Positions 35,949-57,907 of a DNA stretch of 64,000 nucleotides are shown here, one piece after another. The position numbers were made by a program, and so were the translations under genes. This stretch comes from a virus. The notes under the pieces were generated by a model that was given only the letters and a program-made list of their open reading frames with translations, made no database searches and was not told where the DNA came from. The DNA lies in IMG/VR virus record IMGVR_UViG_3300045256_000094; one strand, given 5' to 3'. Position 1 is the first letter of the stretch; each line of letters starts with the position of its first letter.

Positions 35949-36149
35949 TCAAAATCCCTCATTCTGCCAATCCACCTTTTCTCGTTTGGCCGGTTTCACC
36001 GGGGTGTACCAGCCGCCGATCAGGTAGATGTCCGGGAAGTAGGGCCGGGGCCGGACCGTCGCCTTCATCCGCTCCCGGTACACTGAGTCAAGGTACGTTG
36101 CGGCGACGAAGTAGAACGCCATGCTGCCGAGGATAGCCATTTCCAGCAT
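35949..36149 (-). CDS. small hydrophobic protein ending ...REKVDWQNEGF
   Basis: 66 aa; member of the C-terminal WxxEGF group. Confidence 0.5.
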   Translation of the reverse strand: MLEMAILGSMAFYFVAATYLDSVYRERMKATVRPRPYFPDIYLIGGWYTPVKPAKREKVDWQNEGF

Positions 36150-36196
36150 CTCTTCCCCTCATAGACCACCCACGGCAGCAGGTGGTTCACGCTTTT

Positions 36197-37000
36197 TTAC
36201 TCTTTCGTCTTGGCGTACAACCGGAGGATTTCCAGGTACAGCCACACCAGTCCGAGCATCAGACCGAACCCGGCGTACCATTCGTACCACTTCGGTGCCT
36301 TGTCCTCAGCCGCCAACCGGATGTCCTCGAAGTCCACGATCAGTGAGAGTGCTGCCACACCCACCACGAAGATCGAGAACACGACGCCCCAGGTGCCGCC
36401 CTCGTGAACCACCGGGACGTAGCTGCCGAAGCTGAGCATCACCAAGTCCACGGTATACAACACGATGATCCCGAGCATCGCCGCCAGCAGCCCGATCAGG
36501 AACTTCTGGGTCGGCCGCAGGATGCCCGTCCCGTACAGGAACAACATACCCGCCGCCACTCCGAAGGTTGAGGCCAACGCCTCCAACACGATCCCAGGGT
36601 ACTTCGCCTCGAACCCCGCCGAGATCGCACCCAGGGCTAACCCCTCCAGGGCGGCGTAGACCGGGCCGGTGAACGGTGCGGCTCGCTGCACGAAGATCGT
36701 GAACATTGCCACAGCGAAGGCACCGAGGCACCCCCAAATGGCGAGGCTGTAGACGTTGCCGGGAATGTCGATCTGGGTCTTCGCCGCCCCGTCCGTCACC
36801 GCCGAGAACGCATCCTTGTACCCGACCGTGGTGAGGTTCCAGGTGTAGAAGAACGTCGCCGCCATGATCGCCAGCATGATCCCCGTCTTGAGGGCCACGC
36901 CAGCCACACTGAACTTCGCTTCTTGGGGGCCGACTTCTGACTCGTCGAAGCTGCCCTGACGTACCGCCGGATTCTTTAACCAGTCCGCCATCTTACACAC
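36197..37000 (-). CDS. multi-pass membrane protein, BAX-inhibitor-1/YccA-like
   Basis: About 7 predicted TM segments. The C-terminus GLMLGLVWLYLEILRLY resembles the BI-1 family tail. Confidence 0.45.
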   Translation of the reverse strand: MCKMADWLKNPAVRQGSFDESEVGPQEAKFSVAGVALKTGIMLAIMAATFFYTWNLTTVGYKDAFSAVTDGAAKTQIDIPGNVYSLAIWGCLGAFAVAMFTIFVQRAAPFTGPVYAALEGLALGAISAGFEAKYPGIVLEALASTFGVAAGMLFLYGTGILRPTQKFLIGLLAAMLGIIVLYTVDLVMLSFGSYVPVVHEGGTWGVVFSIFVVGVAALSLIVDFEDIRLAAEDKAPKWYEWYAGFGLMLGLVWLYLEILRLYAKTKE

Positions 37001-37049
37001 TCCTTGTGTTAGAAACTGGTGTTAAGCTATCACATCGGCGAACCCGAGT

Positions 37050-37292
37050 CTAGTGCGTTAGCAAATTTCGGAGCAGGGTGTTTTCGGCGTCGATTCGCTC
37101 CAACTCTTTGCGATGGCGGGTTCGCCGCTTAGCCTTCTCGTTCTCTTCGAGAAGTTTCTTTAGAGTCGTCTCGCCGACTTGACCTTTGGGGGCGTTGGTG
37201 AGTTCGCCCAGAATGAACTGAAGTGACTGTCGTTTTTCAGAGCCGAATGGGGTAGCAGAGAGTTCCGACCTGACCTTCGCTAGAACGTCCAT
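37050..37292 (-). CDS. hypothetical protein
   Basis: 80-aa ORF starting 1 nt after the stop of the 37294 ORF. Confidence 0.4.
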   Translation of the reverse strand: MDVLAKVRSELSATPFGSEKRQSLQFILGELTNAPKGQVGETTLKKLLEENEKAKRRTRHRKELERIDAENTLLRNLLTH

Positions 37293-37293
37293 A

Positions 37294-37560
37294 TCAAAAT
37301 CCTTCCTGCGTCCATTCAGGATGTCCGCAGTCTAAACCATATTCCCATTCAAAATCAAGTGCAGCGTGCGCTCCGTCAAGCCACTTCGGACGGTCCGCTG
37401 GACTCGACGAACTGGAAGACGATGTTCTGGTCCGGGTTGAACTCGCCGCAGAGGATGTCTCTGCTTTGACCGCCGGTAAGGTCTTTCCGCAGAATGACCC
37501 GAAATACTTGTTCTGCATCGTCCACCGTAATCCCCTGATCCGAGAACAAATCCTTAACAT
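37294..37560 (-). CDS. questionable ORF ending ...PEWTQEGF (overlaps the 37376-37627 gene in another frame)
   Basis: The C-terminal 24 aa carry the WxxEGF motif. The N-terminal part is a low-complexity alternate frame. Confidence 0.3.
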   Translation of the reverse strand: MLRICSRIRGLRWTMQNKYFGSFCGKTLPAVKAETSSAASSTRTRTSSSSSSSPADRPKWLDGAHAALDFEWEYGLDCGHPEWTQEGF

Positions 37561-37627
37561 CCTGGTAGGTGAGGACGAGTTCTTTGGTCTGAAAGGTCAG
37601 TTGCGTCTCGCTGCCCGTGATAGTCAT
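37376..37627 (-). CDS. hypothetical protein
   Basis: MTITGSETQLTFQTKELVLTYQDVKDLF...; trimmed from the ORF-track extension. Confidence 0.4.
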   Translation of the reverse strand: MTITGSETQLTFQTKELVLTYQDVKDLFSDQGITVDDAEQVFRVILRKDLTGGQSRDILCGEFNPDQNIVFQFVESSGPSEVA

Positions 37628-37701
37628 ACCATATGTAAGTGTCAAAACAAAAAAATCCCCGGCCATCGGGCCGGGGACTTGGCGTTGAGCCTCTGGCGGT
37701 T

Positions 37702-38469
37702 CTAGCTGGACAGACGCTTGCGGACGAGGAACAGGCCGAACGCCGCCGGGATGCCCGAAGCCATCAGTGCGATGCTGCTCGGCTCGGGCGTGGTGATGGT
37801 CGGCGGGCCGTGCGGGTTCGGGTGATCGTTGCAATCCTTGTCATCATGACAGTGGCCCTTCGTGGGGCAGTGGATGGTGCAGATCGGCGGGCAAAAACGA
37901 TTGCACCAGTCGTGGTCTTCAGGGTAGGTGGTCGTCCAGTTGTTGATGATGGTCGGACCGTAGTTGATGAACGTGTCGCCGTTGATGATGGTCGGACCGT
38001 AGTTGATGATCGTCGAGGGCGGCGAGGCGAAGACGGTCGGCGGGCCGTACCGGAAGCCGCCCCCAAACCCCCAGCCTAAACCCCACCCGAGGCCACCGAA
38101 GAACGGGGACGGCGGCGTGTAGAAGAACCTGTTGATCGGCCCGCCCCCGGTCATCGGACCGAACCAGGAGTCGTGGCCGGTGGGCGGCAGACCCGAGTCG
38201 TAGTAGCCGTACAGCGGGACGCTGCCGCCGCTGTACTCTTCTTCACTAAGGACAACCTGCTTGTCGTCGGGGATGGGGATCGGACCGAGCGGGACGGTCG
38301 GGCAGAGGGGGATGGGCGGGCAGGGCAGGCACTCGAAGTAGAAGAACTGCGGCGGCGGGCAGTGGTAGAACCGGATGGGCGGCTCGCACCGGGGTCGGCC
38401 GAGCAGGAACCCGGCCTGGGTTTGGGCCACCATCAGCAGTGGCAGGACGGCGGACAGGAGCAGTCGCAT
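37702..38469 (-). CDS. secreted Cys/Pro/Gly-rich protein with PEP-CTERM sorting signal
   Basis: Signal peptide MRLLLSAVLPLLMVAQTQAG; internal repeats (I)INYGPTIIN; C-terminus TTPEPSSIALMASGIPAAFGLFLVRKRLSS. Confidence 0.62.
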   Translation of the reverse strand: MRLLLSAVLPLLMVAQTQAGFLLGRPRCEPPIRFYHCPPPQFFYFECLPCPPIPLCPTVPLGPIPIPDDKQVVLSEEEYSGGSVPLYGYYDSGLPPTGHDSWFGPMTGGGPINRFFYTPPSPFFGGLGWGLGWGFGGGFRYGPPTVFASPPSTIINYGPTIINGDTFINYGPTIINNWTTTYPEDHDWCNRFCPPICTIHCPTKGHCHDDKDCNDHPNPHGPPTITTPEPSSIALMASGIPAAFGLFLVRKRLSS

Positions 38470-38594
38470 GATGAACCTCCGACAACGAAGCGGGCGAAGA
38501 CCGAACCAGTATACCGTAAACTTTGGATGTGAAAAGGAGAGGGGCGGAATTTCTCCCGCCCCTCTCCCTGCTATAGCTCCCGTCGTTGGGAGTA

Positions 38595-39515
38595 TCACTT
38601 CAACCAGATGCCGTCGAAGTGTTTGTTGAGGAAATCCCTCATTTCTTTGGCGTCAGGTGAGTTCCTAAGTGCATCAAGATACTTCTCTTGCTTGTCATAC
38701 TTGAACTCCTTCAGGTCTTTGCCGGACATGAACACGTCGTAGCTCCGCTTCAGGTGCCAGTGAACAAATCTCTTGAACTGAACATTGGTCTTCCAGTATT
38801 CAGGGTCGTGCTTCTCGGCAGCCATCGCCACCGCAGTTCCGTAGACAGAGAACTCCAGCGGACCCGAAACAGCATCGGACCACTGCCCATTGTGTTTCCC
38901 GATCTTGGTGTCCTCGACGTTGACGCTGGCCCCGTTCACATAGGCAACCCACTCATCAAAGATGTACAGTGGGCGGTCGTCCCACGCCTGCTGTCCCGTG
39001 ACGTAGGTCGGATAGCGGAAGCCGTGGAGGGACTTCGGCACGAAGGGAATGATCGCACTCTTCTTAAACTTCGGCTCGTAGATCACGACGCCTTTGCCGT
39101 GCATGACGTAGAAGCCGTTGACCTTCGTGGAGTCCGGGTGGCCGTTGCGGATGTCGGCGTTGATGCCGTGGGTCGATTCGTGAGCGTTCGTGTCACGGTC
39201 GGCACGGGTGAACGGGCGGCGTGCCCGGTTCATGATGTCGGCGTACAGCGAATCTTCTCGATAGGCTTGCGTCACCGTCTTGACTTCAATGAACTCCGGC
39301 TCAGGAATCTTAGGGGCTGCCGGTGGCGTCCCCTCCTCTGGCCGGGCGTTGATCGGGCTGCTGAACTCTTCAAACGGCTCGACCGGCATTGTTGGCGGGG
39401 CGTTCTCCGTGAGCGACGGTGTACGACTCCCATACAGTTTGTAAATGGCGAGGTTGATGTTGACTGCAAAAGAGAGCAAGACAACCATCAACAGATTGCT
39501 CTTGATAGACATCAA
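38595..39515 (-). CDS. membrane-anchored/secreted hypothetical protein
   Basis: N-terminal hydrophobic segment MMSIKSNLLMVVLLSFAVNINLAIY; 306 aa. Confidence 0.5.
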   Translation of the reverse strand: MMSIKSNLLMVVLLSFAVNINLAIYKLYGSRTPSLTENAPPTMPVEPFEEFSSPINARPEEGTPPAAPKIPEPEFIEVKTVTQAYREDSLYADIMNRARRPFTRADRDTNAHESTHGINADIRNGHPDSTKVNGFYVMHGKGVVIYEPKFKKSAIIPFVPKSLHGFRYPTYVTGQQAWDDRPLYIFDEWVAYVNGASVNVEDTKIGKHNGQWSDAVSGPLEFSVYGTAVAMAAEKHDPEYWKTNVQFKRFVHWHLKRSYDVFMSGKDLKEFKYDKQEKYLDALRNSPDAKEMRDFLNKHFDGIWLK

Positions 39516-39701
39516 GAGTTATCTATAGTTTAACAACCACCATCTCGACCGAGTTCCAGGCAGTTTCTTCCAGGGTCACTCTGTAACCCATTTCGAGGAG
39601 CTTGGTGTGAAGTGCGCCGTCGTAAGGAATGCAGACCCGGATGTCCGGGCTAAGTCCTGCGTCCATAAGGGCTTTGATGAACAGGACAGTATCTTGAAAA
39701 G

Positions 39702-40295
39702 TCAAAATCCCTCTTCTTTCCAGTTCACCTTCTCTCTCGGCTCACTGACTTTCTTGAATGTGTTTACTTCGTCGTCCACGGCGATGCGGACGAATTGAGG
39801 CGGCATGACGACCGGGGCAGAGTTAACGAACCCGAACCGAGACAGGCGGCTGCGGCGGTTCTCGTACCGATCCATCTCCCGCTGGTACTCTCGCTCGTTA
39901 CTGGTGCGAACCGGCCTCTCGTTCATGACTTCCCGGAAGAAGGTATTAGAGTTATGCGCCCATTCGCCCATCATCTCTCGGCGGAACCGCTCGGACTGCT
40001 CCCGGAAATTCCGCTGGGATTCAGTCTCGTTGCTCCGAAGGTTCTGTAAGACGGCCTTGATCGAGGCCAACAGGCTCGCACCGCTTTCATCCTGCCGAGT
40101 CAGCGTGCGGTCCTGGTAGGCAACAATCCGGTCGGAGACGGCTTCCCTCAATCGGAAGTCCCGTCTCCCGCCGTACTCGTTAGATAGGATTGATAAGGCT
40201 TGGTTCTGGTCGCCGGACGTGCCGACTTCCCGCCACTCGCCGTTGAACATCACTTCCATGCGATACCTGTACCAAATGTCGTCGTTGTAGCTCAT
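39702..40295 (-). CDS. hypothetical protein (Arg/Glu-rich) ending ...REKVNWKEEGF
   Basis: 197 aa; member of the WxxEGF group. Confidence 0.5.
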   Translation of the reverse strand: MSYNDDIWYRYRMEVMFNGEWREVGTSGDQNQALSILSNEYGGRRDFRLREAVSDRIVAYQDRTLTRQDESGASLLASIKAVLQNLRSNETESQRNFREQSERFRREMMGEWAHNSNTFFREVMNERPVRTSNEREYQREMDRYENRRSRLSRFGFVNSAPVVMPPQFVRIAVDDEVNTFKKVSEPREKVNWKEEGF

Positions 40296-41086
40296 GCCAA
40301 GTAGGTATGCACCTGCTCCAATACCGACTCGACCCTGGCGATGTCGAACTTGTCGGCCTCGTCCCGGACCTTCGTCTCCATGTCAATCCAGAACGGCGTC
40401 TCGCCTACAACGTCGCCGATCTTCTTCAGAATCTCGACCACGTTGTCAGGCCCGATCCCGCCTGCGTACCCGCACTGCACGCCCTCTGCCGGAGGGTGCC
40501 ACGTCTTCGGCTGCTTACCCTTCCCGCCGCTCACGTCGTAGAGCATGTGGAACTGAAACAACTCCTCCGGCCCGGCCGGACCCGGCTTGTCGTCGTCGAA
40601 GCGGTAGTGCTTCAGGTACTCGTCCCGCAAGTTCTTGTTGATGAGGGCCAACCACTCATGCCGCTGGAAGGCACGCTTGGTCTGGAGGATGATCGAGGGG
40701 CAGAAGTCCAACTCGATGCCCTGACCGGCCCGGTAGGTGTCGAGCAACTTCTGGAAGTCCAACGCCATGAACGTGTCGTCAGTCATGTTGACCTGGAGAC
40801 GCCCGTAGCTGTCGAACTCCTCTTCACCGAAGGTGAACTTCCCCTTAACGAACTCGGTCGTCCACTGGCCGCAGATGTGCGCAGCCAGCGGCAGGTCGTC
40901 CCGCTCGTCCCAATAGGCTTGCAGGTTGCTCGTCCACTCAGGGCCGGGGTAGCGTCCGCTGCCCTGCTTGTTCTTGGAAAAGAGGATGGCCCACTCGACA
41001 AGCGGGTACTTGTCGGTGAGGGCACCGAGTTGTTCCGGGGTAACGGCCTCGTCAGCCCCGGTAATCGTAACACGCTTGAGCTTCAT
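40292..41086 (-). CDS. TIM-barrel protein, phosphoribosylanthranilate-isomerase-like
   Basis: VTITGADE...AHICG...MLYDVSGGKGKQPKTW...GYAGGIGPDNVVEILKKI resembles the TrpF fold motifs. Confidence 0.4.
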   Translation of the reverse strand: MKLKRVTITGADEAVTPEQLGALTDKYPLVEWAILFSKNKQGSGRYPGPEWTSNLQAYWDERDDLPLAAHICGQWTTEFVKGKFTFGEEEFDSYGRLQVNMTDDTFMALDFQKLLDTYRAGQGIELDFCPSIILQTKRAFQRHEWLALINKNLRDEYLKHYRFDDDKPGPAGPEELFQFHMLYDVSGGKGKQPKTWHPPAEGVQCGYAGGIGPDNVVEILKKIGDVVGETPFWIDMETKVRDEADKFDIARVESVLEQVHTYLA

Positions 41087-41113
41087 GTCGCATCCTCCAG
41101 ATGCCACAATCTA

Positions 41114-41389
41114 TCACAACAGGTTGGCGGTGTCCACAGTAACACGACGGCCGTGAACGATAGACGGCGACGGCAGGTCAATCGTTGCACGGTTGCCCTG
41201 GGAGCCGTACTCCTTGACCTTCAAGAACCCCTCGGCGGGGAGTTTCTTGTTACTGCTCTTGAAGACGACGTTATCAAACGGGGTTTTGATTTCGAAAGGA
41301 GTTCCGTCAACCAGGGTGGACTTCACCAAATAATGCTTCTCGGTTTCGGACTCGTGGATGGTGCAGCTTAGTCTGCGATCTTTAGTCAT
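41114..41389 (-). CDS. hypothetical protein
   Basis: 91-aa ORF. Confidence 0.4.
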   Translation of the reverse strand: MTKDRRLSCTIHESETEKHYLVKSTLVDGTPFEIKTPFDNVVFKSSNKKLPAEGFLKVKEYGSQGNRATIDLPSPSIVHGRRVTVDTANLL

Positions 41390-41556
41390 AAAAATACCTC
41401 ACTGCCCATAGAGTAGTGACCTAAAGAAGAAACCCAGGCTAGTGCCTGGGTTTCTGGGCCTGGGATACGATCCCAGGCGGGGTAGTGGAGACGGTCGGAC
41501 TCGCACCGACATTTCCGAGCGGCCCGTGGGCTTTGACTCGGCGGATTACTTTATGC

Positions 41557-41997
41557 CTACGTCCCCTCTGGTCTGCCCGCCTTCCCCTTGCTCCGGTTCT
41601 GGAGGTTCAAGTAGAAAGCAAAGGTCTGGCGGTTCGGAACCGACTTGTTGCCGTCGATGCCCCTGAACACCAGCTTTAGTTTAGTGTTGTCGTTCTCATA
41701 TGGCAAGATGTCTTTCAACCGGGAAAGCACGCTCGCAATGAACGGCCATGTGCCGGTGATCCGAATCCCGTCCTCACCATACGACGACTTGCTCGGCCCG
41801 CCTTCGTTGCCATCCTTCATCGGCTGGATGTAAACGGGCAGGTCCGGGCGTAGTTTCTTCCAGATGTCGAGAATTTCCGCCTTCTTGGCAGACCAACTCT
41901 GGTGCGAGACGCCTTGAACGCCCGCACCAGAGTCGAATGCCTGTTGAGCGAACTCGACGAACTCCTGTTGCTCGAAGAACTCCTTGAAACTACCCAT
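41557..41997 (-). CDS. hypothetical protein with N-terminal MGSFKEFFEQQEF
   Basis: 146 aa; member of the N-terminal FKEF group. Confidence 0.5.
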   Translation of the reverse strand: MGSFKEFFEQQEFVEFAQQAFDSGAGVQGVSHQSWSAKKAEILDIWKKLRPDLPVYIQPMKDGNEGGPSKSSYGEDGIRITGTWPFIASVLSRLKDILPYENDNTKLKLVFRGIDGNKSVPNRQTFAFYLNLQNRSKGKAGRPEGT

Positions 41998-42005
41998 GCC
42001 AGTAT

Positions 42006-44513: not shown

Positions 44514-44534
44514 TCTGTTCTCCTTGTGTTTCCC

Positions 44535-45011: not shown

Positions 45012-45285
45012 CCCAGCCTACACGGCCTCCACCTTACGGCTTCAGCCTCGGCCAGATGTGAGTTCCACGGTACGGTCCCAGGTATTGCTACCTGGGGTGC
45101 CGTCGTTCGGCACGCTTGTCGCACACCCTTGCGGGGTACAGTACCCTAGCTATTACGCTTTGGGATCAAGCTCGCTATCACCCTTACGGTGTTCGCAACC
45201 TTAGACTCGTCAAGATGTAATCCCTCTACCTGTACCTGATTCATCACCAAGTACAAGCATCCTTGCGGACAGCATTCTTCCCGAG

Positions 45286-45356
45286 TAGCCCCTACAGGAG
45301 TCGAACCTGTTCGACCTCTTTAGGAAAGAGGCACGCTTCCGTCACATCCAGGGGCC
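45286..45356 (-). tRNA. tRNA-Arg (anticodon CCU)
   Basis: Hand-folded 71-nt cloverleaf: acceptor GGCCCCU/AGGGGCU, anticodon arm CCUCU-UUCCUAA-AGAGG, T-arm ACAGG-UUCGACU-CCUGU. The D-stem has two G·U pairs. Confidence 0.55.
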
Positions 45357-46523: not shown

Positions 46524-47402
46524 AACATGTACAGTTCGTTCCAAGAGTTCGTTCAAATTCGTGAAGCCAGAACTTGCGAGTCTTACTTAAACGCAGCCGC
46601 CTGGGCCATTAAAGAACAAGCCGAGGAAGTGGGCTTTGAGCTTGTCTTCGACAGCTTCGCAGAGTCCGTCGCACTCGTTTCCCCGGAAACCACCGAGAAG
46701 CAACTTCTTCAAGAGTTCTTGAGCAACCTGCTCAAGAAGGCCGGGAACATGGTCGGCCTGGGTGGACGGCCTCAACAGCCTGCCGCTCCTGCTAAGCCAG
46801 CCGGTCCGCAACTGAACCAAGACCAGATCATGAAGTTCAAGGGTGCCGCTCAGACCGTGAGCCAAGCCATCCAGAACGCCATGATGGCCGTCAACCAGAA
46901 GATCGCTCAGAACAAGGACAAGTACAGCTACGCTGTCATGCACGCCGTCCAGAACTCGATCCAGAAACTACTCCAGAAAGTCCAAACCGATCCGCAGTCC
47001 CTCGTGAAGCAAGCCGGTCAGGACTTCACCAACGGTATGAACACCGCCTTCGCTGGTGCCAACCCGCAGGCACAGGCTTCGACGGGCGACCGTTACAACT
47101 CCCTCAGCGAGCCGATGAAGCAACGCTACGCTCAGATGATCGCAAAGCAGATCGGTGCCACCGGCCAGGAAGCCGCAGTCGCCAACCTGCTGAACGCTGG
47201 TTTCACCAAGCCGGAGCAGATCAAGCAGCAGTTGATGAACGCTGGCAAGTTGCAGAACCCGCTGGGTGCAAACGCCAACGGCGCAACACAAGACATGGAC
47301 CCGGCATACAAGGCCAAGCTCGCAAGCATGGCAGGTCAGCCGACCCCGGCACGACCCGTGGCACGCCCAGGAGCAACAGCCACCCCGACCGCAGCAGTCT
47401 AA
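46524..47402 (+). CDS. Gln/Ala-rich hypothetical protein with N-terminal MYSSFQEF (possible scaffold or internal virion protein)
   Basis: A GTGAGGT ribosome-binding site sits upstream of the MYSSFQEF Met; the ORF is open from 46326. Confidence 0.5.
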   Translation, partial: NMYSSFQEFVQIREARTCESYLNAAAWAIKEQAEEVGFELVFDSFAESVALVSPETTEKQLLQEFLSNLLKKAGNMVGLGGRPQQPAAPAKPAGPQLNQDQIMKFKGAAQTVSQAIQNAMMAVNQKIAQNKDKYSYAVMHAVQNSIQKLLQKVQTDPQSLVKQAGQDFTNGMNTAFAGANPQAQASTGDRYNSLSEPMKQRYAQMIAKQIGATGQEAAVANLLNAGFTKPEQIKQQLMNAGKLQNPLGANANGATQDMDPAYKAKLASMAGQPTPARPVARPGATATPTAAV

Positions 47403-50801: not shown

Positions 50802-50907
50802 GAACCCTCCTGAGATTCACGGCCAGCCGCCTGCTTGACGACCGGGACCACACTGAAGTGGACAGGGAGAGTAATACCGACGCCCTGGCGGGGTGTCAAC
50901 CTTTTTT

Positions 50908-51424: not shown

Positions 51425-51447
51425 CGTGTCCAGATCGGTGTCCTGGT

Positions 51448-51957
51448 TCACTTTTTGTCCTTCTCTTCTTCGGATGTGAACGAGCGTTTGAGGCCACGCC
51501 ACAAGCCCTGGCCGAGATCGCCCCCGGCCTCGCCGATGCCTTCACCCGCCTTCTTCCAGTCGAGCTTGACGTGGCGGGTTGCGGTGATGTCGTCCTTCGT
51601 GTTGGGCTTGCCGTCCGGCCCACACGAGATGATGGTCATCGACTTCATGAAGCCGTCGTTGTACTTGACCATCAGGTCGTTGCCCCACGGGTCGGCCCGG
51701 TGGAGGGCTTCCGCCAGCCCCTCCTCGGGACAACTCCTGCACTCCTCGACCATCTCCTTCGCCTGCTTGACCTTCTCCTTCTCCAGCCTGATCTGTTCCT
51801 GCCGCTCGTTGTACTCCCGGTTCAGGGCACAGCCACCGTAACCGATCAGACCGGCGACAACCAACATGATGACGAAGATCACAAAAGGCCCGGCGGGGTC
51901 GTTACGTCGCATGTCATCCTCCTTATCGGTCACGGTCGTCGTAGTCGTATCGCTCAT
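51448..51957 (-). CDS. membrane-anchored hypothetical protein
   Basis: TM segment PFVIFVIMLVVAGLIGYGG. Confidence 0.45.
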   Translation of the reverse strand: MSDTTTTTVTDKEDDMRRNDPAGPFVIFVIMLVVAGLIGYGGCALNREYNERQEQIRLEKEKVKQAKEMVEECRSCPEEGLAEALHRADPWGNDLMVKYNDGFMKSMTIISCGPDGKPNTKDDITATRHVKLDWKKAGEGIGEAGGDLGQGLWRGLKRSFTSEEEKDKK

Positions 51958-52123
51958 TGTACCCGTCGTCGTCGCCGGTGTAATGTCGGCTCGGGACGTA
52001 GTTGGGGCGGTAGGTCTGTAGGTCAGTTACCTGACGGCGAAGCGACGTGTTCTCGCTACGCAGCTTCGTGTTTTCGGCACGGAGTTCAGCGTTTTCCTTC
52101 TGCAATTGTTCCAGTTCGGTCAT
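51923..52123 (-). CDS. small coiled-coil protein
   Basis: MTELEQLQKENAELRAENTKLRSENTSLRRQVTDLQ. Confidence 0.4.
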   Translation of the reverse strand: MTELEQLQKENAELRAENTKLRSENTSLRRQVTDLQTYRPNYVPSRHYTGDDDGYNERYDYDDRDR

Positions 52124-52189
52124 GTTATCCCCTTAATGCGGATAGATAAGACATCTATGATCTAAATCAATACTCCCAGGAGGCCCGCT

Positions 52190-52612
52190 ATGGTGAAGAG
52201 ACTTCTCCGGTTCTGTGAATCGTTCGCCAAGAAAACAACTCATTGGGCCGGGAGTAGTCTAGCGTTCCTGCTGGCGATTCTGGTCATCTTACTCTGGATC
52301 GTCACTGGCCCACTCTTCGGATTCTCAGACACATGGCAACTGGTGATTAACACCGGCACCACCATCGTGACCTTCCTGATGGTATTCCTTATTCAACGCA
52401 CGCAGAACAAAGACTCCATCGCCCTCCAGCTAAAGCTTAACGAATTGCTGGCCGCTCATCAAGGGGCGAGCAACCGATTGCTGAACATCGAAGAGTTGTC
52501 GGAAGAGGAGATTATGGCGTTGCAGAAGAAGTATCACAAGCTGGCAGACAAGATCAAGGCCGATGACAATCCGCACCGGGCCTTCACTGTTGACGAAGTG
52601 GACGACGACTGA
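52190..52612 (+). CDS. low-affinity iron permease (Fet4-like) family membrane protein
   Basis: FSDTWQLVINTGTTIVTFLMVFLIQRTQNKDS. Confidence 0.58.
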   Translation: MVKRLLRFCESFAKKTTHWAGSSLAFLLAILVILLWIVTGPLFGFSDTWQLVINTGTTIVTFLMVFLIQRTQNKDSIALQLKLNELLAAHQGASNRLLNIEELSEEEIMALQKKYHKLADKIKADDNPHRAFTVDEVDDD

Positions 52613-52747
52613 ACCGCTTCTTCCACAACCGATCCAGTAGTTTGATCCAGAGGCGGGCACACCGCTGGCTACAGAGAGGTTTCAACGTCCCGTCTGTGTC
52701 GTAAAACCCCCAGACGGGACGGTTTCGTTTACACCAACTGCATCTCA

Positions 52748-53119
52748 TCATAGGAGCTTCAAGCTCCCCGTGATCTTGTCGATCTTCCCCGCCGGAGCCG
52801 GACCGATGGCGAGGCAGGTCTTGGTGGGCACTCCGTTGAACTCAGTACGCCCGCTGTCCGTAATCATGTGGACGGTGAGCATGGCGTCCTTCGCCTTCTG
52901 GAAGATGTCGAGCAGTTCTTCCTCGGAGTCGCAGCGGACGCAAATCTTGGCGTAGCCCGATTCGGTCCACTCGACTTCTTCCTTCGTGAGCTTCTGCCCG
53001 TTGAGGAGTTTCTGCATCAAAAACGCACCGGAGGCGTGCGAACCCTGGGCGACCATCTTGCCCTTGCGCATGTTCAGGTCGTTACGCATCACGATGACTT
53101 GCTTCACGTCGTCCATCAC
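52748..53119 (-). CDS. peptidyl-tRNA hydrolase, PTH2 family
   Basis: KMVAQGSHASGAF...KICVRCDSEEELL...DSGRTEF...TCLAIGPAPAGKIDKITGSLKLL. Confidence 0.8.
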   Translation of the reverse strand: MMDDVKQVIVMRNDLNMRKGKMVAQGSHASGAFLMQKLLNGQKLTKEEVEWTESGYAKICVRCDSEEELLDIFQKAKDAMLTVHMITDSGRTEFNGVPTKTCLAIGPAPAGKIDKITGSLKLL

Positions 53120-53412
53120 TTCTCCACTTTCGTGACTTTACCGAAGATAGTCTTCGTCCAGCCGTTGACGTGCCCCTTGTTGTTGCTGATCTGCCACCGC
53201 TGGCCGTCTTTGGCGGTAATCAGATGGAGGTAGTAGGTGCCGTGGACTTTGCACAGCACCACGTCGCCTACCTCTAGCGTCTCGGGAGCGACGGGCTGGA
53301 CAGTTACCAGATCACCGTCGTCCACTTTCCCTGTCATCGAGTTGCCTCTAGGCCGAAACTGGACGGTTTCGCCTTTCTGCAACTTCTCAACATGCGGCTT
53401 TGCCCAACTCAC
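53116..53412 (-). CDS. S24-like peptidase-domain protein (LexA/UmuD-type fold)
   Basis: FRPRGNSMTGKVDDGDLVTV. Confidence 0.45.
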   Translation of the reverse strand: MSWAKPHVEKLQKGETVQFRPRGNSMTGKVDDGDLVTVQPVAPETLEVGDVVLCKVHGTYYLHLITAKDGQRWQISNNKGHVNGWTKTIFGKVTKVEK

Positions 53413-53617
53413 ACTTCACCGCCATGAACGGGTTAACGATCTGCATGCCCTCGGCCTGCTTCTCTGCCTTCTCTTCGCCCGCCCGCTCGATCTCCCTCCG
53501 GGAGTGGAACGGACAGCAGTGCAACGACCAGTCGAGGCAGACGCCGTAGAACACGCCTTCCCCTGATACTACCTTGACGGCTTTGCAATTACAACCGGGA
53601 ATTTCGCAGCTTGGCAT
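53387..53617 (-). CDS. Cys-rich small protein
   Basis: 76-aa ORF. Confidence 0.4.
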   Translation of the reverse strand: MPSCEIPGCNCKAVKVVSGEGVFYGVCLDWSLHCCPFHSRREIERAGEEKAEKQAEGMQIVNPFMAVKCELGKAAC

Positions 53618-53985
53618 TAGAAACCCTCCTGTCTCCAGTTAACGCCCGTTTCCCCACGAATCAGGCGACAAGAGTATGTACGTTGATGCTGTGCGTCTTC
53701 GAGGAAAGGATAGAGCTTCCGGCAGTGAATCCACAACATGACGGGAGTGCCGAACAGGTAGAGGACAGGAATTGCAATACCGGCCAGGATCGTCTCGAAG
53801 ATATCCCCGGCGTCGGCCTTCCTCATGCAGAAATCAAAGGTGCGAACGAAGACGTGTTTCCTGATCGCCAGGACGCACTTGTCGATGAAGTTGGGTTTCA
53901 TGGTTGTCCCCCACGCCGGGCGGGTCGGGCAACCCCTGTCCGACCCCATAAGGACAATGCCTGCAACCATTGCGGCAGCAGGCAT
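53617..53985 (-). CDS. hypothetical protein ending ...ETGVNWRQEGF
   Basis: Member of the WxxEGF group; the likely start is the internal MKPNFIDK. Confidence 0.45.
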   Translation of the reverse strand: MPAAAMVAGIVLMGSDRGCPTRPAWGTTMKPNFIDKCVLAIRKHVFVRTFDFCMRKADAGDIFETILAGIAIPVLYLFGTPVMLWIHCRKLYPFLEDAQHQRTYSCRLIRGETGVNWRQEGF

Positions 53986-54064
53986 TGCGGTTTCTCAAGA
54001 ACAACGTGGTTAGGACGAACCGGCCGTTCTCTTGGTAATAATCTCGTCCCTCTTGTAACATGAG

Positions 54065-54155
54065 TCGGGGTGTCGGGATTCGAACCCGATCCGGTGGGTT
54101 AATCGGACCCTATACCGATTATAAGTCGGCCCGTTCTGCCAGTAACTCCACCCCG
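54065..54155 (-). tRNA. class II-like tRNA (91 nt, long variable region); anticodon loop CUUAUAA, so the anticodon is possibly UAU and the identity is uncertain
   Basis: Acceptor CGGGGUG/CACCCCG (7/7 pairs), 3-bp D-stem GUU/AAC, T-arm UCGGG-UUCGAAU-CCCGA. Confidence 0.5.
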
Positions 54156-54354
54156 CCTTTCACCAACGGCAAGCGACGACCCACTTGCCGCCCTGTACCG
54201 CTATCGGGTCTTCCACCCACTTGAACAAGATGTACCGCTCGTTTGGCGGCTGCGTGACTGCGGACACATACTTGTCGTTGTAGTTGAGCAGGTGGTATCC
54301 CGCAGCAACGATCTCGTCAACTCGGTGGTACATGAGCTATCTATGCTGCTCGTT

Positions 54355-54534
54355 TTATTCCCACGGCCAGTTGAACTTCACCGGGGAGTCCTTCGGAGGC
54401 CAGCCACGCAGCCAGACGGTCGCATAGAACACCGTCTGCTGGAACAACACGAACAGCCCGGCCAGGACGATGAGGAAGAAAAGTCCCTGACCGAAGTGGT
54501 CCCACTTTGCTGCGATGCTCCAGAACTCTTGCAT
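54355..54534 (-). CDS. small membrane protein (not in the ORF track; 59 aa)
   Basis: GGAGG ribosome-binding site 6 nt before the ATG; MQEFWSIAAKWDHFGQGLFFLIVLAGLFVLF. Confidence 0.4.
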   Translation of the reverse strand: MQEFWSIAAKWDHFGQGLFFLIVLAGLFVLFQQTVFYATVWLRGWPPKDSPVKFNWPWE

Positions 54535-54557
54535 GATTGGCCTCCGAGGGTTGTGTT

Positions 54558-54691
54558 ACTTCTTCTTGGCCGGGGCTGCCTTCTTGGCCGGAGCCTTCTT
54601 TGCAGGAGCAGCCTTCTTGGCCGGGGTTGCCTTTTTGGGAGCGGCCTTCTTAGCCGGTGCGGCCTTAGCCGGAGCTTTCTTAGTTGCCATG
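54558..54691 (-). CDS. small basic Lys/Ala/Pro-repeat protein (histone H1-like or AlgP-like KKAAPA repeats; 44 aa, not in the ORF track)
   Basis: MATKKAPAKAAPAKKAAPKKATPAKKAAPAKKAPAKKAAPAKKK, with an AAGGA ribosome-binding site upstream. Confidence 0.45.
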
Positions 54692-54759
54692 ATACAAATC
54701 CTTTCTTTTAGAAACAAGCACCATACTTGTTGATAAAGAAAAGATAGTAACTCCTGTGG

Positions 54760-55134
54760 TCATTTTCTACTAACTGTCAGTTTTCCTTCACGAATATCGA
54801 GCAACATCTGCGCTTCCTGCTCGGTGATTCGGTATTCGAGCAGGTAGTGGTTGAAGTCGAGAACCTTCTTCGCCCCACGCTTGATGTCGCTCAACAGCTT
54901 CTCGTCCTCTGCCGAGATCACCGTGCCGCCCTGCGTCACCGTGGGCGGCTTCGGCTGCTCCTCGTAGAAGGAGATGTCATCCTCTCGGATGTAGCTGTGG
55001 TTGAGGACTCGTGCCCCGCTGATGAGACTGTGGACGGCTTCCTGGCGGGACTTCTCCCTCCACCGCTCCGTGCCGTCTTGGATACGGCACTCGACGAGCC
55101 ATTCGCCGTTCTGCAACTTGGTGATGCTGTACAT
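54760..55134 (-). CDS. hypothetical protein
   Basis: 124-aa ORF. Confidence 0.45.
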   Translation of the reverse strand: MYSITKLQNGEWLVECRIQDGTERWREKSRQEAVHSLISGARVLNHSYIREDDISFYEEQPKPPTVTQGGTVISAEDEKLLSDIKRGAKKVLDFNHYLLEYRITEQEAQMLLDIREGKLTVSRK

Positions 55135-55152
55135 TCCTGTCCTCCTTGACAG

Positions 55153-55467
55153 TCATGCTGTGTACTTGAGGCCGACAACTCCGCTGAGGATCATGGTCAG
55201 GAACAACACCCGGCCCACGGTGAACGGCTCGGCGAACAAGATGATGCCGAGCAGTGCGGTCCCGACGGCCCCGATCCCCGTCCACACGACGTACCCCGTT
55301 CCAACGGGGATCGTCTTGATTGCCATCGCCAGGAAGGTGAAGCTGATGCCCATCCCGACGAGCGTGGCGATGCTCCACTTGAGTTTAGTGAAGCCGTCCG
55401 AGTGCTTCAGACAGATCGCCCAGATGATTTCAAATGCGGCTGCGATAAACAAATAGACCCAGGCCAT
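55153..55467 (-). CDS. SMR-family transporter (SugE/Gdx-like)
   Basis: Four TM segments; GYVVWTGIGAVGTALLGIILFAEP. Confidence 0.75.
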   Translation of the reverse strand: MAWVYLFIAAAFEIIWAICLKHSDGFTKLKWSIATLVGMGISFTFLAMAIKTIPVGTGYVVWTGIGAVGTALLGIILFAEPFTVGRVLFLTMILSGVVGLKYTA

Positions 55468-55543
55468 TTCGCCCTCCGGTGTACCTATTACCGGGTCGTC
55501 CCGGTTAGAGATATACCGACGGGTCGTCCCAGCCGGTTATTCG

Positions 55544-56095
55544 TCAGACTTGCACGACAACGTATGTGTCGGCGACTTCCAAGCCCATCCTCTCGTCGAA
55601 CCCGTCAACGCTCTCCACGTCGGCAATGAGTTCAAGTTCTTGTAGTATTTCTAATGCCAGTTCGGCGTCGGTCCCAGGCTTGGGATTGTATTTACCCAAG
55701 CCGCTCGAAGTTACACTTTCAAAAGACACAGGAATGAACTGGAATTTGTTTTTTCCTGCGGCCACAGCGTCTTCGAGCAGCTTGGGCAACTTGCTGAACC
55801 ACTCGTCCAGCATCTTCTTCCGTCGTTCCGATTTCAGAGCCGCCGCCTTTTCCTGGTTGCGACGGATCGTTTCTTGCTGCCGCTCGTGGCCCTTGTCACG
55901 AGCTTCATCCAAGCTCCGCAGCATGGATGCCTTCCACGCCGAATCCTTCAGATCGTGTCCGATGCCCATGTCGTCCTCCTTGACCTTCTTTTTACGCTTG
56001 CCGTAGTTGGTGGCCTTCGCAGCCGACTGGTCGAAGGGTCCACCGATGTAGCCAGCGTGGGTCATGTACCGAAAGTATTGGTCGTCCTGACTCAT
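55544..56095 (-). CDS. hypothetical protein
   Basis: 183-aa ORF. Confidence 0.45.
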   Translation of the reverse strand: MSQDDQYFRYMTHAGYIGGPFDQSAAKATNYGKRKKKVKEDDMGIGHDLKDSAWKASMLRSLDEARDKGHERQQETIRRNQEKAAALKSERRKKMLDEWFSKLPKLLEDAVAAGKNKFQFIPVSFESVTSSGLGKYNPKPGTDAELALEILQELELIADVESVDGFDERMGLEVADTYVVVQV

Positions 56096-56097
56096 AC

Positions 56098-56604
56098 TTA
56101 GTTTTTACCGACTTTCGTCTCCAAACGCAAGATGCGTTCCTTCAGGTCGGAGTTTTCTTTCTTCAGGTCGTTGATCTCCTTCTCCAACTTCTCGATGGTC
56201 GCCTTCGTCGTCTTGGTGTTCTCCTCGCTGTAGGTCTGCCGCTCCTTCAGGCCGACTTCCAGCAGGGCGATCTTCTCCTTGTGGAGCTTCAGGAGTTCGT
56301 CGTTGGCCTTGACCAGCTTGTCCAGGTCGTTGTACCGCTCCTTGCCGGAGTCACGGGCCTGGGTCATCATGGCGAGCCGTTCACGAATCTGAACGTTCTC
56401 TTCCTTCATCTGGGTCAACGTGGTCGTGATCTCAGCACGAAACGTGGAGATGTTGTTTGTTAAGCTGTTAAGGATGACGGCCAGCAAAAGTGTGGTGAGG
56501 CCGATCAACGCACCGCCGAACAGCTTCCAGAACCACGGAGAGCCTTCGATGTGTTGCTGCGTTACTACTTGTTGTGCTTTGACTTCTTCTTCTTTGTCAG
56601 ACAT
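56098..56604 (-). CDS. N-terminal TM plus long coiled-coil protein (i-spanin-like topology)
   Basis: TM segment WFWKLFGGALIGLTTLLLAVIL followed by a heptad-rich C-terminal region. Confidence 0.4.
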   Translation of the reverse strand: MSDKEEEVKAQQVVTQQHIEGSPWFWKLFGGALIGLTTLLLAVILNSLTNNISTFRAEITTTLTQMKEENVQIRERLAMMTQARDSGKERYNDLDKLVKANDELLKLHKEKIALLEVGLKERQTYSEENTKTTKATIEKLEKEINDLKKENSDLKERILRLETKVGKN

Positions 56605-56655
56605 GTTTACCCCCTCTAGCGGTATGTATCGCTAGTAGGGGGAAACATCATGATT

Positions 56656-56898
56656 TTAGTCGTTCTTGACGGGGTGCAGCTTCGGGTGCCTCGACGGGAA
56701 CTTCAGAATGCTCCCGACCGGCTCCGGCTCGCCGCCGTCTTCAGGCATCGGCCGAGGCGGGGTGAGCTTGGCTCCCTGGCCCGTTTCATCGTCGTCCAAC
56801 CCGTCCATCACCTTCACGATCAGCTTCTTGATGTCCTGCCGGTACTTCGGGTACTCCTCGGCAAGCCTCGATAAGTCGGAAATCAACTGAAAAGACAT
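56656..56898 (-). CDS. hypothetical protein
   Basis: Trimmed to the internal Met (MSFQLISDL). Confidence 0.4.
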   Translation of the reverse strand: MSFQLISDLSRLAEEYPKYRQDIKKLIVKVMDGLDDDETGQGAKLTPPRPMPEDGGEPEPVGSILKFPSRHPKLHPVKND

Positions 56899-56924
56899 AT
56901 AACCCTCCCTGGTTGTTAATATAG

Positions 56925-57140
56925 TTACCCGTCGAGCCACTTGACGACATCTCGGTGGCTCTCCAGCACCAGGGACTCCTCCTCTGGGGCGATCACCACG
57001 TCGTCGGGAATGGGCTGGACCCACGGCCCCAGAAAGCTGTCTCGGAAGATGGTGCGTTTGGGCACGTTGACTTTCAACGTGGCCCAGACTTCACTCTCGT
57101 CGATCCGGGTGGCGTCCAGAACCCATTCCTTCAGTGTCAT
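56925..57140 (-). CDS. hypothetical protein
   Basis: 71-aa ORF. Confidence 0.4.
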   Translation of the reverse strand: MTLKEWVLDATRIDESEVWATLKVNVPKRTIFRDSFLGPWVQPIPDDVVIAPEEESLVLESHRDVVKWLDG

Positions 57141-57149
57141 GATGACCCT

Positions 57150-57647
57150 TTACTTCTTGAGTTTCGCCTGGAGATGGGCGGACAGTCCTTTCTGTCCCTT
57201 CGCCAACTCCCGCTTGACTTCGTTCGCCGTCACGCCACGTTCACTGATGGTGGCCTTCGTGTTGATCGTCACCCGGCTGCCGAAGCGGTCGGCCACGACG
57301 ACGATCTTGTTCTCGGCGTCCACCATGCCGCCCTTGTTAGCCTCGGTCATAGCTGCCTTGAACTCGCTCTTGTCCTTGTCCTCGCTCTCCTTCAGGGTGA
57401 ACTCCCAGGAGTGCCGGAGGTTGCTGATCCGCACCTTCACGCCGTCCTTGTTCCGCTCGACGACCTTCATCCCCATCGCACCCAGAACGGCGTCCGGGTT
57501 CATGCGGAGATAGTCTTCCACGACCTGCGGTGCGACCGGCAAAAGTACGACGGTTTCCGACTCTGCGGTAACAGTGGTCGGAGGAGCAGCAGCAAACGAA
57601 GCTGCCCCGAAAGCGATGGCAAGCATCGCCAACATAGCCCTAAGCAT
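57150..57647 (-). CDS. secreted hypothetical protein
   Basis: Signal peptide MLRAMLAMLAIAFGAASFAAA. Confidence 0.5.
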   Translation of the reverse strand: MLRAMLAMLAIAFGAASFAAAPPTTVTAESETVVLLPVAPQVVEDYLRMNPDAVLGAMGMKVVERNKDGVKVRISNLRHSWEFTLKESEDKDKSEFKAAMTEANKGGMVDAENKIVVVADRFGSRVTINTKATISERGVTANEVKRELAKGQKGLSAHLQAKLKK

Positions 57648-57685
57648 TAGTATACCTCACATATGGGGTGTGCGGTATTTATGCT

Positions 57686-57907
57686 TTAGAACCCGTCTTT
57701 CAACCAGTCGAACGGCGGCTCGGGGCCGAGGAAGCAGTCGGCACAACGGTCACAAAGGGCTTCGGCGTAGTGCCTGCCCTTGACGAGTAAGTGCCCACAC
57801 TTCGCTTCGTTTCCGCACCAGCAGCAGCAGGTGAAGTAGGTGTAGTCGTTTTTCTGAACGAACTCGGCCGACGGAATCGGCGAGCTTTGGTTAACACAGG
57901 CAATCAT
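57686..57907 (-). CDS. Cys-rich small protein ending ...PPFDWLKDGF
   Basis: Member of the WxxEGF group (DGF variant). Confidence 0.45.
   Translation of the reverse strand: MIACVNQSSPIPSAEFVQKNDYTYFTCCCWCGNEAKCGHLLVKGRHYAEALCDRCADCFLGPEPPFDWLKDGF

Follow-up and report, generated by a model that had tools for sequence, protein, structure and literature searches.

The 64,000-nucleotide window analysed here, one stretch of a 169-kb contig of a large phage (IMG/VR record IMGVR_UViG_3300045256_000094), carries five small minus-strand genes, here called T1 to T5, whose products end in almost the same peptide, [V/F]-[D/N]-W-x-x-[E/D]-G-F in four of the five and HPEWTQEGF in T2. The complete ends are REKVDWQNEGF (T1), HPEWTQEGF (T2), REKVNWKEEGF (T3), ETGVNWRQEGF (T4) and PPFDWLKDGF (T5). 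Coordinates of the genes, of their tails and of the neighbouring features are collected in Table 1, where L003 and L004 designate two related loci used for comparison.

Table 1. Tail-bearing genes of the window and associated features
Feature	Position	Strand	Description	Tail and its position	Stop codon	Next gene	Relatives
T1	35949..36149	-	66-aa protein with an N-terminal hydrophobic helix and a basic segment	VDWQNEGF, 35952-35975	TGA	HNH endonuclease (35228-35860), starting 88 nt downstream	Orthologues in L003 and L004 end KVDWQHEGF and KVDWQQEGF
T2 body	37376..37627	-	83-aa gene in frame A, ending ...GPSEVA		TGA		83-aa genes called at the same place in L003 and L004
Candidate +1 recoding site	37376..37389	-	CCGAAGTGGCTTGA; GCT (Ala) codon followed by the stop; the coding frame switches here		TGA		Invariant in three diverged genomes
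T2 extension	37294..37377	-	27 codons in the +1 frame, DGAHAALDFEWEYGLDCGHPEWTQEGF	PEWTQEGF, 37297-37320	TGA	Starts 1 nt after the stop	Conserved in L003 and L004
T3	39702..40295	-	197-aa Arg/Glu-rich protein; predicted small folded N-domain, then helices, then a disordered stretch of about 40 residues	VNWKEEGF, 39705-39728	TGA, overlapping a TTG		All 8 homologues plus the fragment P0014 end in EKVNWKEEGF
T4	53617..53985	-	Membrane protein of 117-122 aa with a TM helix at about residues 66-84	VNWRQEGF, 53620-53643	TAA	ATG overlaps the stop (TAATG)	Orthologues end GIDWKKEGF and GHNWRREGF
T5	57686..57907	-	73-aa Cys-rich protein with CxxC-type motifs	FDWLKDGF, 57689-57712	TAA	Starts 38 nt downstream	Orthologues end AFDWSKDGF and SFDWTKEGF

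The recurrent tail reported in the initial annotation is confirmed. In the six-frame translation of the window, W-x-x-[ED]-G-F occurs exactly five times and every copy is followed at once by a stop codon, while 100 order-2 Markov simulations gave a mean of 0.01 terminal and 0.48 total occurrences. A position matrix of the last eight residues scores the five ends at 25-31 bits and the next best ORF end at 4 bits, so that there are exactly five clear instances and no degenerate ones. The possibility that the five ORFs form one duplicated family, set beforehand as a test, is not borne out, since BLASTP between the proteins finds only the tails; in addition, none of the five matches Pfam, PHROGs or NCBIfam. 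The codons differ between the five tails, as had been stated. However, two corrections are needed. The 88-aa ORF at 37294-37560 that was taken as the T2 carrier is mostly an out-of-frame overlap of a real 83-aa gene, and only its last 27 codons look translated. Moreover, the tail, which had been described as acidic, is not strongly so; position -3 is usually Lys in the wider family and the net charge is about -1 to 0.

The T2 tail is apparently joined to the 83-aa gene by a conserved +1 frameshift at GCU-UGA. Frame A is under selection and conserved up to GCT TGA, the +1 frame is conserved after it, and downstream of the site frame A is full of stops in L003 and L004. A 9-nt indel downstream in L004 keeps the +1 frame open, and the extension has no in-frame ATG, GTG or TTG of its own. 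These features are those of a programmed +1 frameshift, although the event and its product are inferred from sequence alone. It recalls the +1 frameshifting of prfB and of Listeria phage PSA, where the frame also moves at a sense codon followed by UGA, but GCU cannot re-pair in the +1 frame as CUU does in prfB, and no clear upstream Shine-Dalgarno stimulator is present. An apparent second case, in locus L061, was rejected because its tail is cut off by in-frame stops.

The tail is retained in orthologues of all five families at 47-71% identity, where W, E/D, G and F are invariant while the neighbouring residues diverge. Beyond these families, it ends about 60 further unrelated small ORFs in some 30 IMG/VR phage contigs, often in tandem arrays. 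In the IMG/VR loci, 74 occurrences are terminal against 3 internal, and 16 tails that the search pattern could not have selected lie next to pattern hits. The consensus is E/P-K-V-[DN]-W-x-K-E-G-F, and the Trp lies five residues before the terminal Phe in all 57 non-redundant tails tabulated (66 DNA instances). Across these 66 non-redundant instances all synonymous codons are used, namely four for Val, GAA (33) and GAG (31) for Glu, TTC (35) and TTT (31) for Phe, and four for Gly, so that selection acts on the peptide. The carriers are unrelated ORFans of 43-217 aa (median 96 aa) without family matches. Their bodies include membrane anchors, zinc-ribbon-like modules, coiled coils, acidic proteins and fragments copied from the major head protein. 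In T3, the one carrier modelled with AF2, a folded domain is predicted to be followed by a disordered stretch of about 40 residues that ends in the tail, and the linkers preceding the tails are mildly enriched in P, E and K. In single-pass membrane carriers, the flank bearing the tail is the more positive side in most cases, which suggests that it probably faces the cytoplasm, although this topology evidence is weak for several proteins.

A pattern scan of 185,579 species genomes returned about 24 long-ORF hits, 13 of them in Planctomycetota. These 13 genes lie in mobile-element-like regions, beside ParB-N, Dam-type methylase, HNH, DUF1281_C, DUF262 and transposase-like genes, and isolated copies occur in chromosomal islands without phage structural genes. 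The host attribution rests on this single scan. Other searches added little. In a local test, a profile built on the tail alone gave E values of 10-1400 even for the true tails, which made such a search of the 5.8-billion-protein database not feasible. Searches of viral and metagenome contigs with the T3 family alignment confirmed nothing, and a T3 profile search against 1.84 billion representatives found only the same narrow family plus a spurious FN3 repeat protein. Comparison by tblastn of a neighbouring HExxH protein and of one tail protein with cultured phages found nothing, and megablast of the region hit only a GTP cyclohydrolase gene. The HExxH protein has no sequence relative in the PDB, and its single-sequence AF2 model was uninformative (pLDDT 41). 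Literature searches for the motif strings and for phage C-terminal motifs returned nothing relevant, and no family model or paper was found to describe the motif.

A nucleotide-level layer, overlooked in the initial annotation, overlaps the peptide and keeps a translation-level (cis) role alive. The E-G codons (GA[AG]-GGN) are Shine-Dalgarno-like and often double as the ribosome-binding site of the next gene, and GGA is used for the Gly in 53% of tails against 27% in the background. TGA is the stop in 46 of 66 tail ORFs (70%) against 35% of other ORFs (p=1.5e-7). Likewise, 46 of 66 tail ORFs (70%) are followed within 10 nt by a start codon, against 37% of other ORFs, with many TGATG and TAATG overlaps. 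Within orthologue sets, synonymous sites are nearly frozen, with 9 identical codons and 1 changed in the T3 tail against 13 and 44 in the body, and 7 and 1 in the T1 tail against 4 and 14. However, about 20 of the 66 tails have no start codon within 10 nt downstream, including T1 and T5 with their orthologues, and most chromosomal Planctomycetota copies have gaps of 50-550 nt or a convergent gene. The peptide is thus kept where translational coupling is impossible.

Several terminal peptides offer points of comparison. The chemoreceptor C-terminal pentapeptide (NWETF, xWxxF) that tethers CheR and CheB also lies at the extreme end of an unstructured linker, with Trp and a terminal Phe as key residues and other positions often acidic (PMC7390727), and several of the present tails even begin with N-W. 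Its spacing is W-x-x-F, whereas that of the phage tails is W-x-x-x-x-F with an invariant Gly at -1; the carriers have no MCP signal domain and are not receptors with a linker of about 30-35 residues, and no chemoreceptor carried the tail in the genome scan. The SSB C-terminal tip (…DDDIPF) and the acidic Phe-ended tails of T7 gp2.5 and gp4 combine an acidic residue, a small residue and a terminal Phe with a free carboxylate into a hub-binding tip on a disordered tail. There, one or two replisome proteins carry a tip that many partners read, while here many unrelated proteins carry the tail, which has Lys at -3, Trp at -5 and no acidic run ending in [ILP]-P-F or D-F; no SSB, helicase or polymerase in the related loci ends this way. 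Clamp-binding motifs (bacterial QL[SD]LF; the tails of T4 gp43, gp33 and gp55 that bind gp45) likewise dock several phage proteins on one ring-shaped hub, but their sequences are unrelated, no Q-L or L-x-F pattern occurs at any tail position, and the present carriers include membrane proteins and tiny ORFs, not polymerases or transcription factors. Tether peptides of AAA+ protease adaptors, such as the SspB C-terminal ClpX-binding tail, share the modular design of variable substrate-binding body, flexible linker and short docking peptide, without sequence similarity or evidence of a protease link. The E-G-F end fits the PDZ class III pattern ([DE]-x-hydrophobic-COOH). Bacterial PDZ proteases are periplasmic, while the tails appear cytoplasmic, and no receptor-like domain (PDZ, TPR, SH3) was found among about 50 window proteins.

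The best explanation, held to be about as likely as not, is that the octapeptide is a new short linear docking motif acting in trans. In this view, its free carboxylate and its Trp and Phe side chains would tether each carrier to one common cytoplasmic partner, while the variable body would supply the specific activity. As tail genes also occur in Planctomycetota chromosomes outside recognisable phages, the partner would most likely be a conserved host protein of Planctomycetota-like hosts, and in T2 the frameshift would set the fraction of molecules that receive the tail. The analysis establishes the motif, its terminal position, purifying selection on the peptide, its spread and the modular architecture of the carriers, whereas binding itself, the existence of a single partner, and its host-encoded and cytoplasmic nature are inferences. 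The interpretation given initially is therefore partly supported: peptide-level conservation, unrelated carriers and the fit to a shared C-terminal signal were correctly recognised, but no replisome protein in the related loci carries the tail, the single-pass membrane carriers argue against capsid or encapsulin-type cargo loading, and the tail does not resemble known bacterial C-degrons.

Among the alternatives, the main rival, although doubtful, is a nascent-peptide signal acting in cis, which would slow RF2-dependent release at the stop codon while the E-G codons pair with the anti-Shine-Dalgarno sequence, keeping the ribosome on the mRNA for re-initiation at the next cistron whatever the carrier. 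The stop-codon bias, the frequent coupling, the over-used GGA, the frozen synonymous sites and the tandem arrays of tiny ORFs, including gene fragments, favour this view, and arrest peptides such as TnaC depend on a conserved Trp and a UGA stop. It is weakened by the uncoupled tails and by the occurrence of TAA and TAG stops. In addition, the Trp lies only five residues from the C-terminus, far from the tunnel constriction used by TnaC and SecM, and the T2 frameshift makes more sense if the tail matters for the finished protein. A degron recognised by a cytoplasmic AAA+ protease or its adaptor, a special case of docking, is unlikely but compatible with an exposed aromatic end on a disordered linker and with carriers that look like early or accessory genes; either the proteins would be short-lived or they would deliver what their bodies bind, and head-protein fragments could be decoys bringing capsid-sensing host proteins to a protease. 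However, all tails end in E/D-G-F and do not resemble ssrA-type (…LAA) or other known bacterial C-degrons, and the strict Gly and Trp suggest a shaped pocket rather than a general non-polar-tail sensor.

Loading into the prohead, in the way of T4 internal proteins or encapsulin cargo, is very unlikely. Related contigs do encode a T4-type major head protein (phrog_138) and some carriers are fragments of the head protein, but the tail has no sequence similarity to the T4 capsid-targeting sequence or to encapsulin cargo-loading peptides, several carriers are single-pass membrane proteins, isolated copies occur without structural genes, and a separate N-terminal motif resembling the T4 capsid-targeting sequence already exists on other proteins of this phage. 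Equally improbable is a by-product of a conserved ribosome-binding site, stop and start junction or of a recombination linker at gene boundaries. Shine-Dalgarno-like content, tight coupling and synonymous conservation within lineages would fit, but a ribosome-binding site requires neither a fixed reading frame, nor a Trp five codons upstream, a V-[D/N] pair or Phe as the last residue, and uncoupled copies keep the full peptide. This reading is already largely refuted by the codon diversity between families and phages.

A more speculative and unlikely possibility, which the evidence leaves standing, is that the tail is the universal handle of an adaptor system specific to the mobilome of Planctomycetota. 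Dozens of interchangeable small heads would each bind a different host target, among them decoy fragments of the phage's own major head protein (a frequent trigger of bacterial immunity), and the tail would deliver or sequester each target at a single conserved host machine such as a protease, a chaperone or a membrane site. This would be a bacterial counterpart of viral hijacking by short linear motifs or of PROTAC-like targeting.

Short linear motifs plugging many viral proteins into one host hub are familiar in eukaryotic viruses but hardly documented in phages. Here, one octapeptide marks a whole class of otherwise unannotatable small phage and mobile-element proteins, gives a sequence handle for finding them and a peptide bait for the putative partner in a poorly studied host phylum, and may explain the function of dozens of ORFans at once. 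The head-protein fragments hint at a decoy or assembly role, and T2 adds a candidate new +1 frameshift site that would control whether the tail is added.

Other readings of the sequence were excluded. A -35/-10 promoter in GTTGAC…TAATG was rejected because the V and D codons are not fixed, and fusion of successive array ORFs by frameshifting because TTC is as common as TTT and there is no slippery heptamer. Finally, another recurrent end in the window, FVDYVLKK at 6884, 11630 and 13371, belongs to plain paralogues.

The recurrent tail is real: the five minus-strand ORFs, numbered T1 to T5 in order along the window, end exactly as given in the initial annotation. A six-frame regular-expression scan finds W..[ED]GF five times in 64 kb, and all five copies are followed at once by a stop, with no internal copies, while 100 order-2 Markov simulations gave on average 0.01 terminal and 0.48 total occurrences. 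A position matrix of the last eight residues separates the five (25-31 bits) from every other ORF end (4 bits or less). Pairwise BLASTP finds only the tails in common, and none of the five proteins matches Pfam, PHROGs or NCBIfam. Thus, neither of the two outcomes set beforehand as refuting the observation, namely a motif no more frequent than expected by chance or a single duplicated gene family, applies.

The window is part of a large phage-like genome whose source contig is 169 kb. Its 34-64 kb half is a block of densely packed small genes, mostly on the minus strand, mixed with host-like genes, namely a GluRS-like gene, HNH, BaxI_1, a PEP-CTERM protein, a CCA-adding enzyme, YqeY, NADAR, PTH2, an S24-like peptidase, SMR, an iron permease and a T2SS-G-like pseudopilin. 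Two tRNAs are also called there by ARAGORN, tRNA-Arg(CCT) and an unusually long (92 nt) tRNA-Ile(TAT), although the Rfam scan at gathering thresholds reports no tRNA or any other RNA family in the window.

One carrier was mis-delimited in the initial annotation. The 88-aa ORF of T2 mostly overlaps, out of frame, a real 83-aa gene that ends …GPSEVA-TGA. In three diverged genomes (the window and the IMG/VR contigs L003 and L004), frame A, which encodes the 83-aa protein, is conserved up to this stop, after which only the +1 frame is conserved and open, reading DGAHAALDFEWEYGLD…PEWTQEGF. The 14 nt CCGAAGTGGCTTGA are invariant, a 9-nt indel downstream keeps the +1 frame open, and the extension of 27 codons has no start codon of its own. 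The simplest reading is a programmed +1 frameshift at GCU-UGA, inferred from sequence alone, which would give a tail-less 83-aa product and a tailed 110-aa product. An embedded overlapping gene that starts far upstream cannot be excluded, but that upstream part evolves like a non-coding frame.

The tail is conserved in orthologues of all five families. For T3, eight homologues at 47-100% identity, plus one fragment, all end in EKVNWKEEGF, although the middle of the protein is barely alignable. Orthologues of T1 and T2 in the syntenic contigs L003-L005 keep W-x-x-E-G-F, those of T4 end GIDWKKEGF and GHNWRREGF, and those of T5 end AFDWSKDGF and SFDWTKEGF.

The motif is far more widespread than the window. 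Scanning IMG/VR for the back-translated pattern V[DN]WxxEGF-stop returned 42 loci from about 30 contigs with GC 0.37-0.62, in which 74 ORFs end in W..[ED]GF and only 3 copies are internal. Because this pattern, also used for the genome scan described below, fixes V, D/N, W, E, G, F and the stop, frequencies at those positions are biased, and only the orthologue sets and 16 tails that do not fit the pattern (for example HINWIKEGF, FDWRKEGF, MDWKREGF, GDWKDEGF and LSWQDDGF) are unbiased. These 16 sit next to pattern hits and so form an independent confirmation. In addition, a few single hits (loci L012, L013, L031 and L032, the last three recurring on further contigs as L045, L071 and the Desulfovibrio family) may be chance or lineage-specific coincidences. 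The genes often form tandem arrays, with five consecutive ORFs in locus L033 and three in several other loci. One 158-kb contig has at least 8 tails and one 239-kb contig at least 7. The latter is a distant relative of the window phage (33-66% identity over many genes) and has tail genes at equivalent positions, next to the HNH gene, next to the homologue of the HExxH protein and next to PTH2, but the proteins that carry the tail there are different. These phages encode a T4-type major head protein, topoisomerase II, a DnaB-like helicase and an SSB, and the searches made for a cultured phage relative found none.

The same pattern scanned over 185,579 species genomes gave mostly chance hits with ORFs under 40 aa. 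However, thirteen of the roughly 24 hits with long ORFs lie in Planctomycetota, including the complete genome of Novipirellula sp. SH528, Rhodopirellula sallentina, several Thermoguttaceae, Schlesneria and Pirellulales. The carriers there are again unrelated ORFans, one of which has a DUF1281_C domain, and they lie beside ParB-N, Dam-type methylase, small HNH, DUF262, AAA-ATPase and transposase-like genes, which is a mobile-element or defence-island context. The pseudopilin-like gene of the window also fits this picture, as does its PEP-CTERM protein, a 298-aa Pro/Gly-rich product with a PEP-CTERM-like sorting signal at its C-terminus (Pfam hit just below the cut-off), which suggests a host that has an exosortase. 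Together, this points, if indirectly, to Planctomycetota-like hosts and to a partner that is available without a large phage genome.

Across 66 non-redundant instances every synonymous codon is used: for Val GTT 17, GTG 16, GTC 10 and GTA 7, for Asp/Asn all four codons, for Glu GAA 33 and GAG 31, for Gly all four codons, and for Phe TTC 35 and TTT 31. The usage is close to the background except for Gly. This codon diversity shows selection on the peptide, as the initial annotation had claimed. A second layer exists, however. GA[AG]-GGN is Shine-Dalgarno-like, and 46 of 66 tail ORFs are followed within 10 nt by a start codon, often as TGATG or TAATG, against 37% of other ORFs. TGA is the stop in 70% against 35% of other ORFs (p=1.5e-7), and GGA is used in 53% against 27% in the background. 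Within orthologue sets (window, L003, L004 and contig L128), the last ~10 codons are almost frozen at synonymous sites, T3 having 9 identical and 1 changed in the tail against 13 and 44 in the body, and T1 having 7 and 1 against 4 and 14. Coupling cannot explain everything, since T1 (88-nt gap), T5 (38-nt gap) and about 18 other tail ORFs have no adjacent start, and most chromosomal copies likewise lie far from the next gene; for the uncoupled T1 and T5 the nucleotide-level constraint finds no explanation.

The consensus is [E/P]-[K/D/E]-V-[D/N]-W-x-K-E-G-F-COOH, and a 12-mer with the tail and its free carboxylate can be written SEPREKVNWKEEGF-COOH. The carriers are small, with a median of 96 aa. 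The AF2 model of T3 shows a confident small N-domain, then helices, and then a disordered stretch from about residue 155 to 197 that ends in the tail. Eight carriers have one strong hydrophobic helix, and in most of them the tail side is the more positively charged flank, which fits a cytoplasmic tail, although the signal is weak for some. T5 is Cys-rich and T3 is highly charged, so both are presumably cytoplasmic.

An unexpected class of carriers was found in several IMG/VR phages, in which the tail-bearing tandem mini-ORFs are fragments of the phage's own T4-type head protein. In locus L006, the three ORFs o1, o2 and o3 correspond to residues 52-111, to residues 256-283 and to 460-485 followed by 407-459, respectively, the last being a circular permutation, while L043 corresponds to 161-246 and L010_C to 272-315. 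Each fragment is followed by a short linker and the tail, and the fragments are conserved between diverged phages. In one phage group they sit between an aldehyde dehydrogenase gene and a UDP-glucose-dehydrogenase-like gene. Such fragments would fit decoys or assembly modulators tied to the tail's partner.

The best-supported reading, held at about even confidence, is a trans-acting C-terminal docking motif that tethers many variable small proteins to one cytoplasmic partner, probably host-encoded. The proposal of the initial annotation, a common docking, targeting or degradation signal, is partly supported. What the sequences themselves establish is the motif, its terminal position, its conservation and spread, and selection on the peptide, whereas binding, the partner and its location, and frameshifting are inferred, and any effect on stability or ribosome stalling is only proposed. 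A degron or protease-adaptor role would be a special case of docking and is doubtful on present evidence. The main rival, possible but less likely, is a cis-acting nascent-peptide and Shine-Dalgarno module that promotes termination-reinitiation. It would account for the TGA bias, the tight coupling and the frozen synonymous sites, but it is weakened by the many uncoupled copies and by the inferred T2 frameshift, which makes most sense if the tail matters in the finished protein. Capsid targeting is very unlikely given the membrane carriers and the isolated chromosomal copies, and a pure DNA-junction artefact, judged equally improbable, is contradicted by the codon diversity.

The closest analogue is the chemoreceptor NWETF (xWxxF) tether for CheR and CheB, which has a terminal position, an unstructured linker, Trp and a terminal Phe, and acts as a tether (PMC7390727). 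However, the spacing, the invariant Gly and the carriers all differ, so that the tail does not belong to this group. SSB-Ct and T7-type tails, clamp-binding motifs and ssrA-type degrons, some of which the initial annotation had offered as comparable cases, each fail at least one defining feature. Capsid or encapsulin targeting peptides, also offered there, show no sequence similarity to the tail, and several carriers of the tail are membrane proteins. No Pfam, PHROG or NCBIfam model and no paper in the literature searched describes the motif. It would therefore be a novel sequence among the already known hub-binding terminal short linear motifs, with a putative receptor.

Coordinates of features in the window and in IMG/VR loci (loci bear the prefix L)
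Sequence	Coordinates	Strand	Feature
Window	37294-37627	-	T2, probable programmed +1 frameshift
Window	37376-37627	-	T2, 83-aa gene
Window	37294-37560	-	T2, 88-aa ORF as first delimited
Window	37702-38598	-	298-aa protein with PEP-CTERM-like signal
Window	38595-39515	-	306-aa HExxH protein
Window	45285-45356	-	tRNA-Arg(CCT), ARAGORN call
Window	54064-54155	-	tRNA-Ile(TAT), ARAGORN call
Window	54355-54534	-	59-aa membrane protein with Trp-rich end
Window	6884-7807	+	Protein with FVDYVLKK-like C-terminus
Window	11630-12643	-	Protein with FVDYVLKK-like C-terminus
Window	13371-14420	+	Protein with FVDYVLKK-like C-terminus
Window	9668-10417	+	N-terminal M-x-x-F-[KQF]-E-[FM] peptide
Window	32234-33706	+	N-terminal M-x-x-F-[KQF]-E-[FM] peptide
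Window	41557-41997	-	N-terminal M-x-x-F-[KQF]-E-[FM] peptide
Window	46527-47402	+	N-terminal M-x-x-F-[KQF]-E-[FM] peptide
L006	~6220-7239		N-terminal M-x-x-F-[KQF]-E-[FM] peptide
L027	8445-9227	-	N-terminal M-x-x-F-[KQF]-E-[FM] peptide
L018	675-1463		N-terminal M-x-x-F-[KQF]-E-[FM] peptide
L016	9794-11098		N-terminal M-x-x-F-[KQF]-E-[FM] peptide
L006	7529-8480		Head-protein-fragment mini-ORFs
L010	12474-13305		Head-protein-fragment mini-ORFs
L014	6030-7054		Head-protein-fragment mini-ORFs
L023	3398-4266		Head-protein-fragment mini-ORFs
L033	7161-8227		Head-protein-fragment mini-ORFs
L043	3177-3557		Head-protein-fragment mini-ORFs

A second recurrent terminal peptide, this time N-terminal (MGSFKEFFE, MLTFKEFMM, MYSSFQEFV, MQSFFEMSE), occurs on otherwise different proteins and resembles the T4 capsid-targeting sequence MKTYQEFIAE. 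The HExxH protein has an N-terminal hydrophobic anchor, a Pro-rich linker and an HESTH motif, and is conserved just downstream of tail-bearing genes in the window, L003, L004 and the distant relative L020, but it has no family match and its structure model was not usable. The three proteins of about 300 aa with FVDYVLKK-like C-termini are paralogues (31-37% identity over their full length), so this is ordinary homology and not a second shared tail. Finally, the 59-aa membrane protein ends …SPVKFNWPWE, an end that is reminiscent of the tail but lacks E-G-F, and it has a 47%-identical homologue in the distant relative L047.
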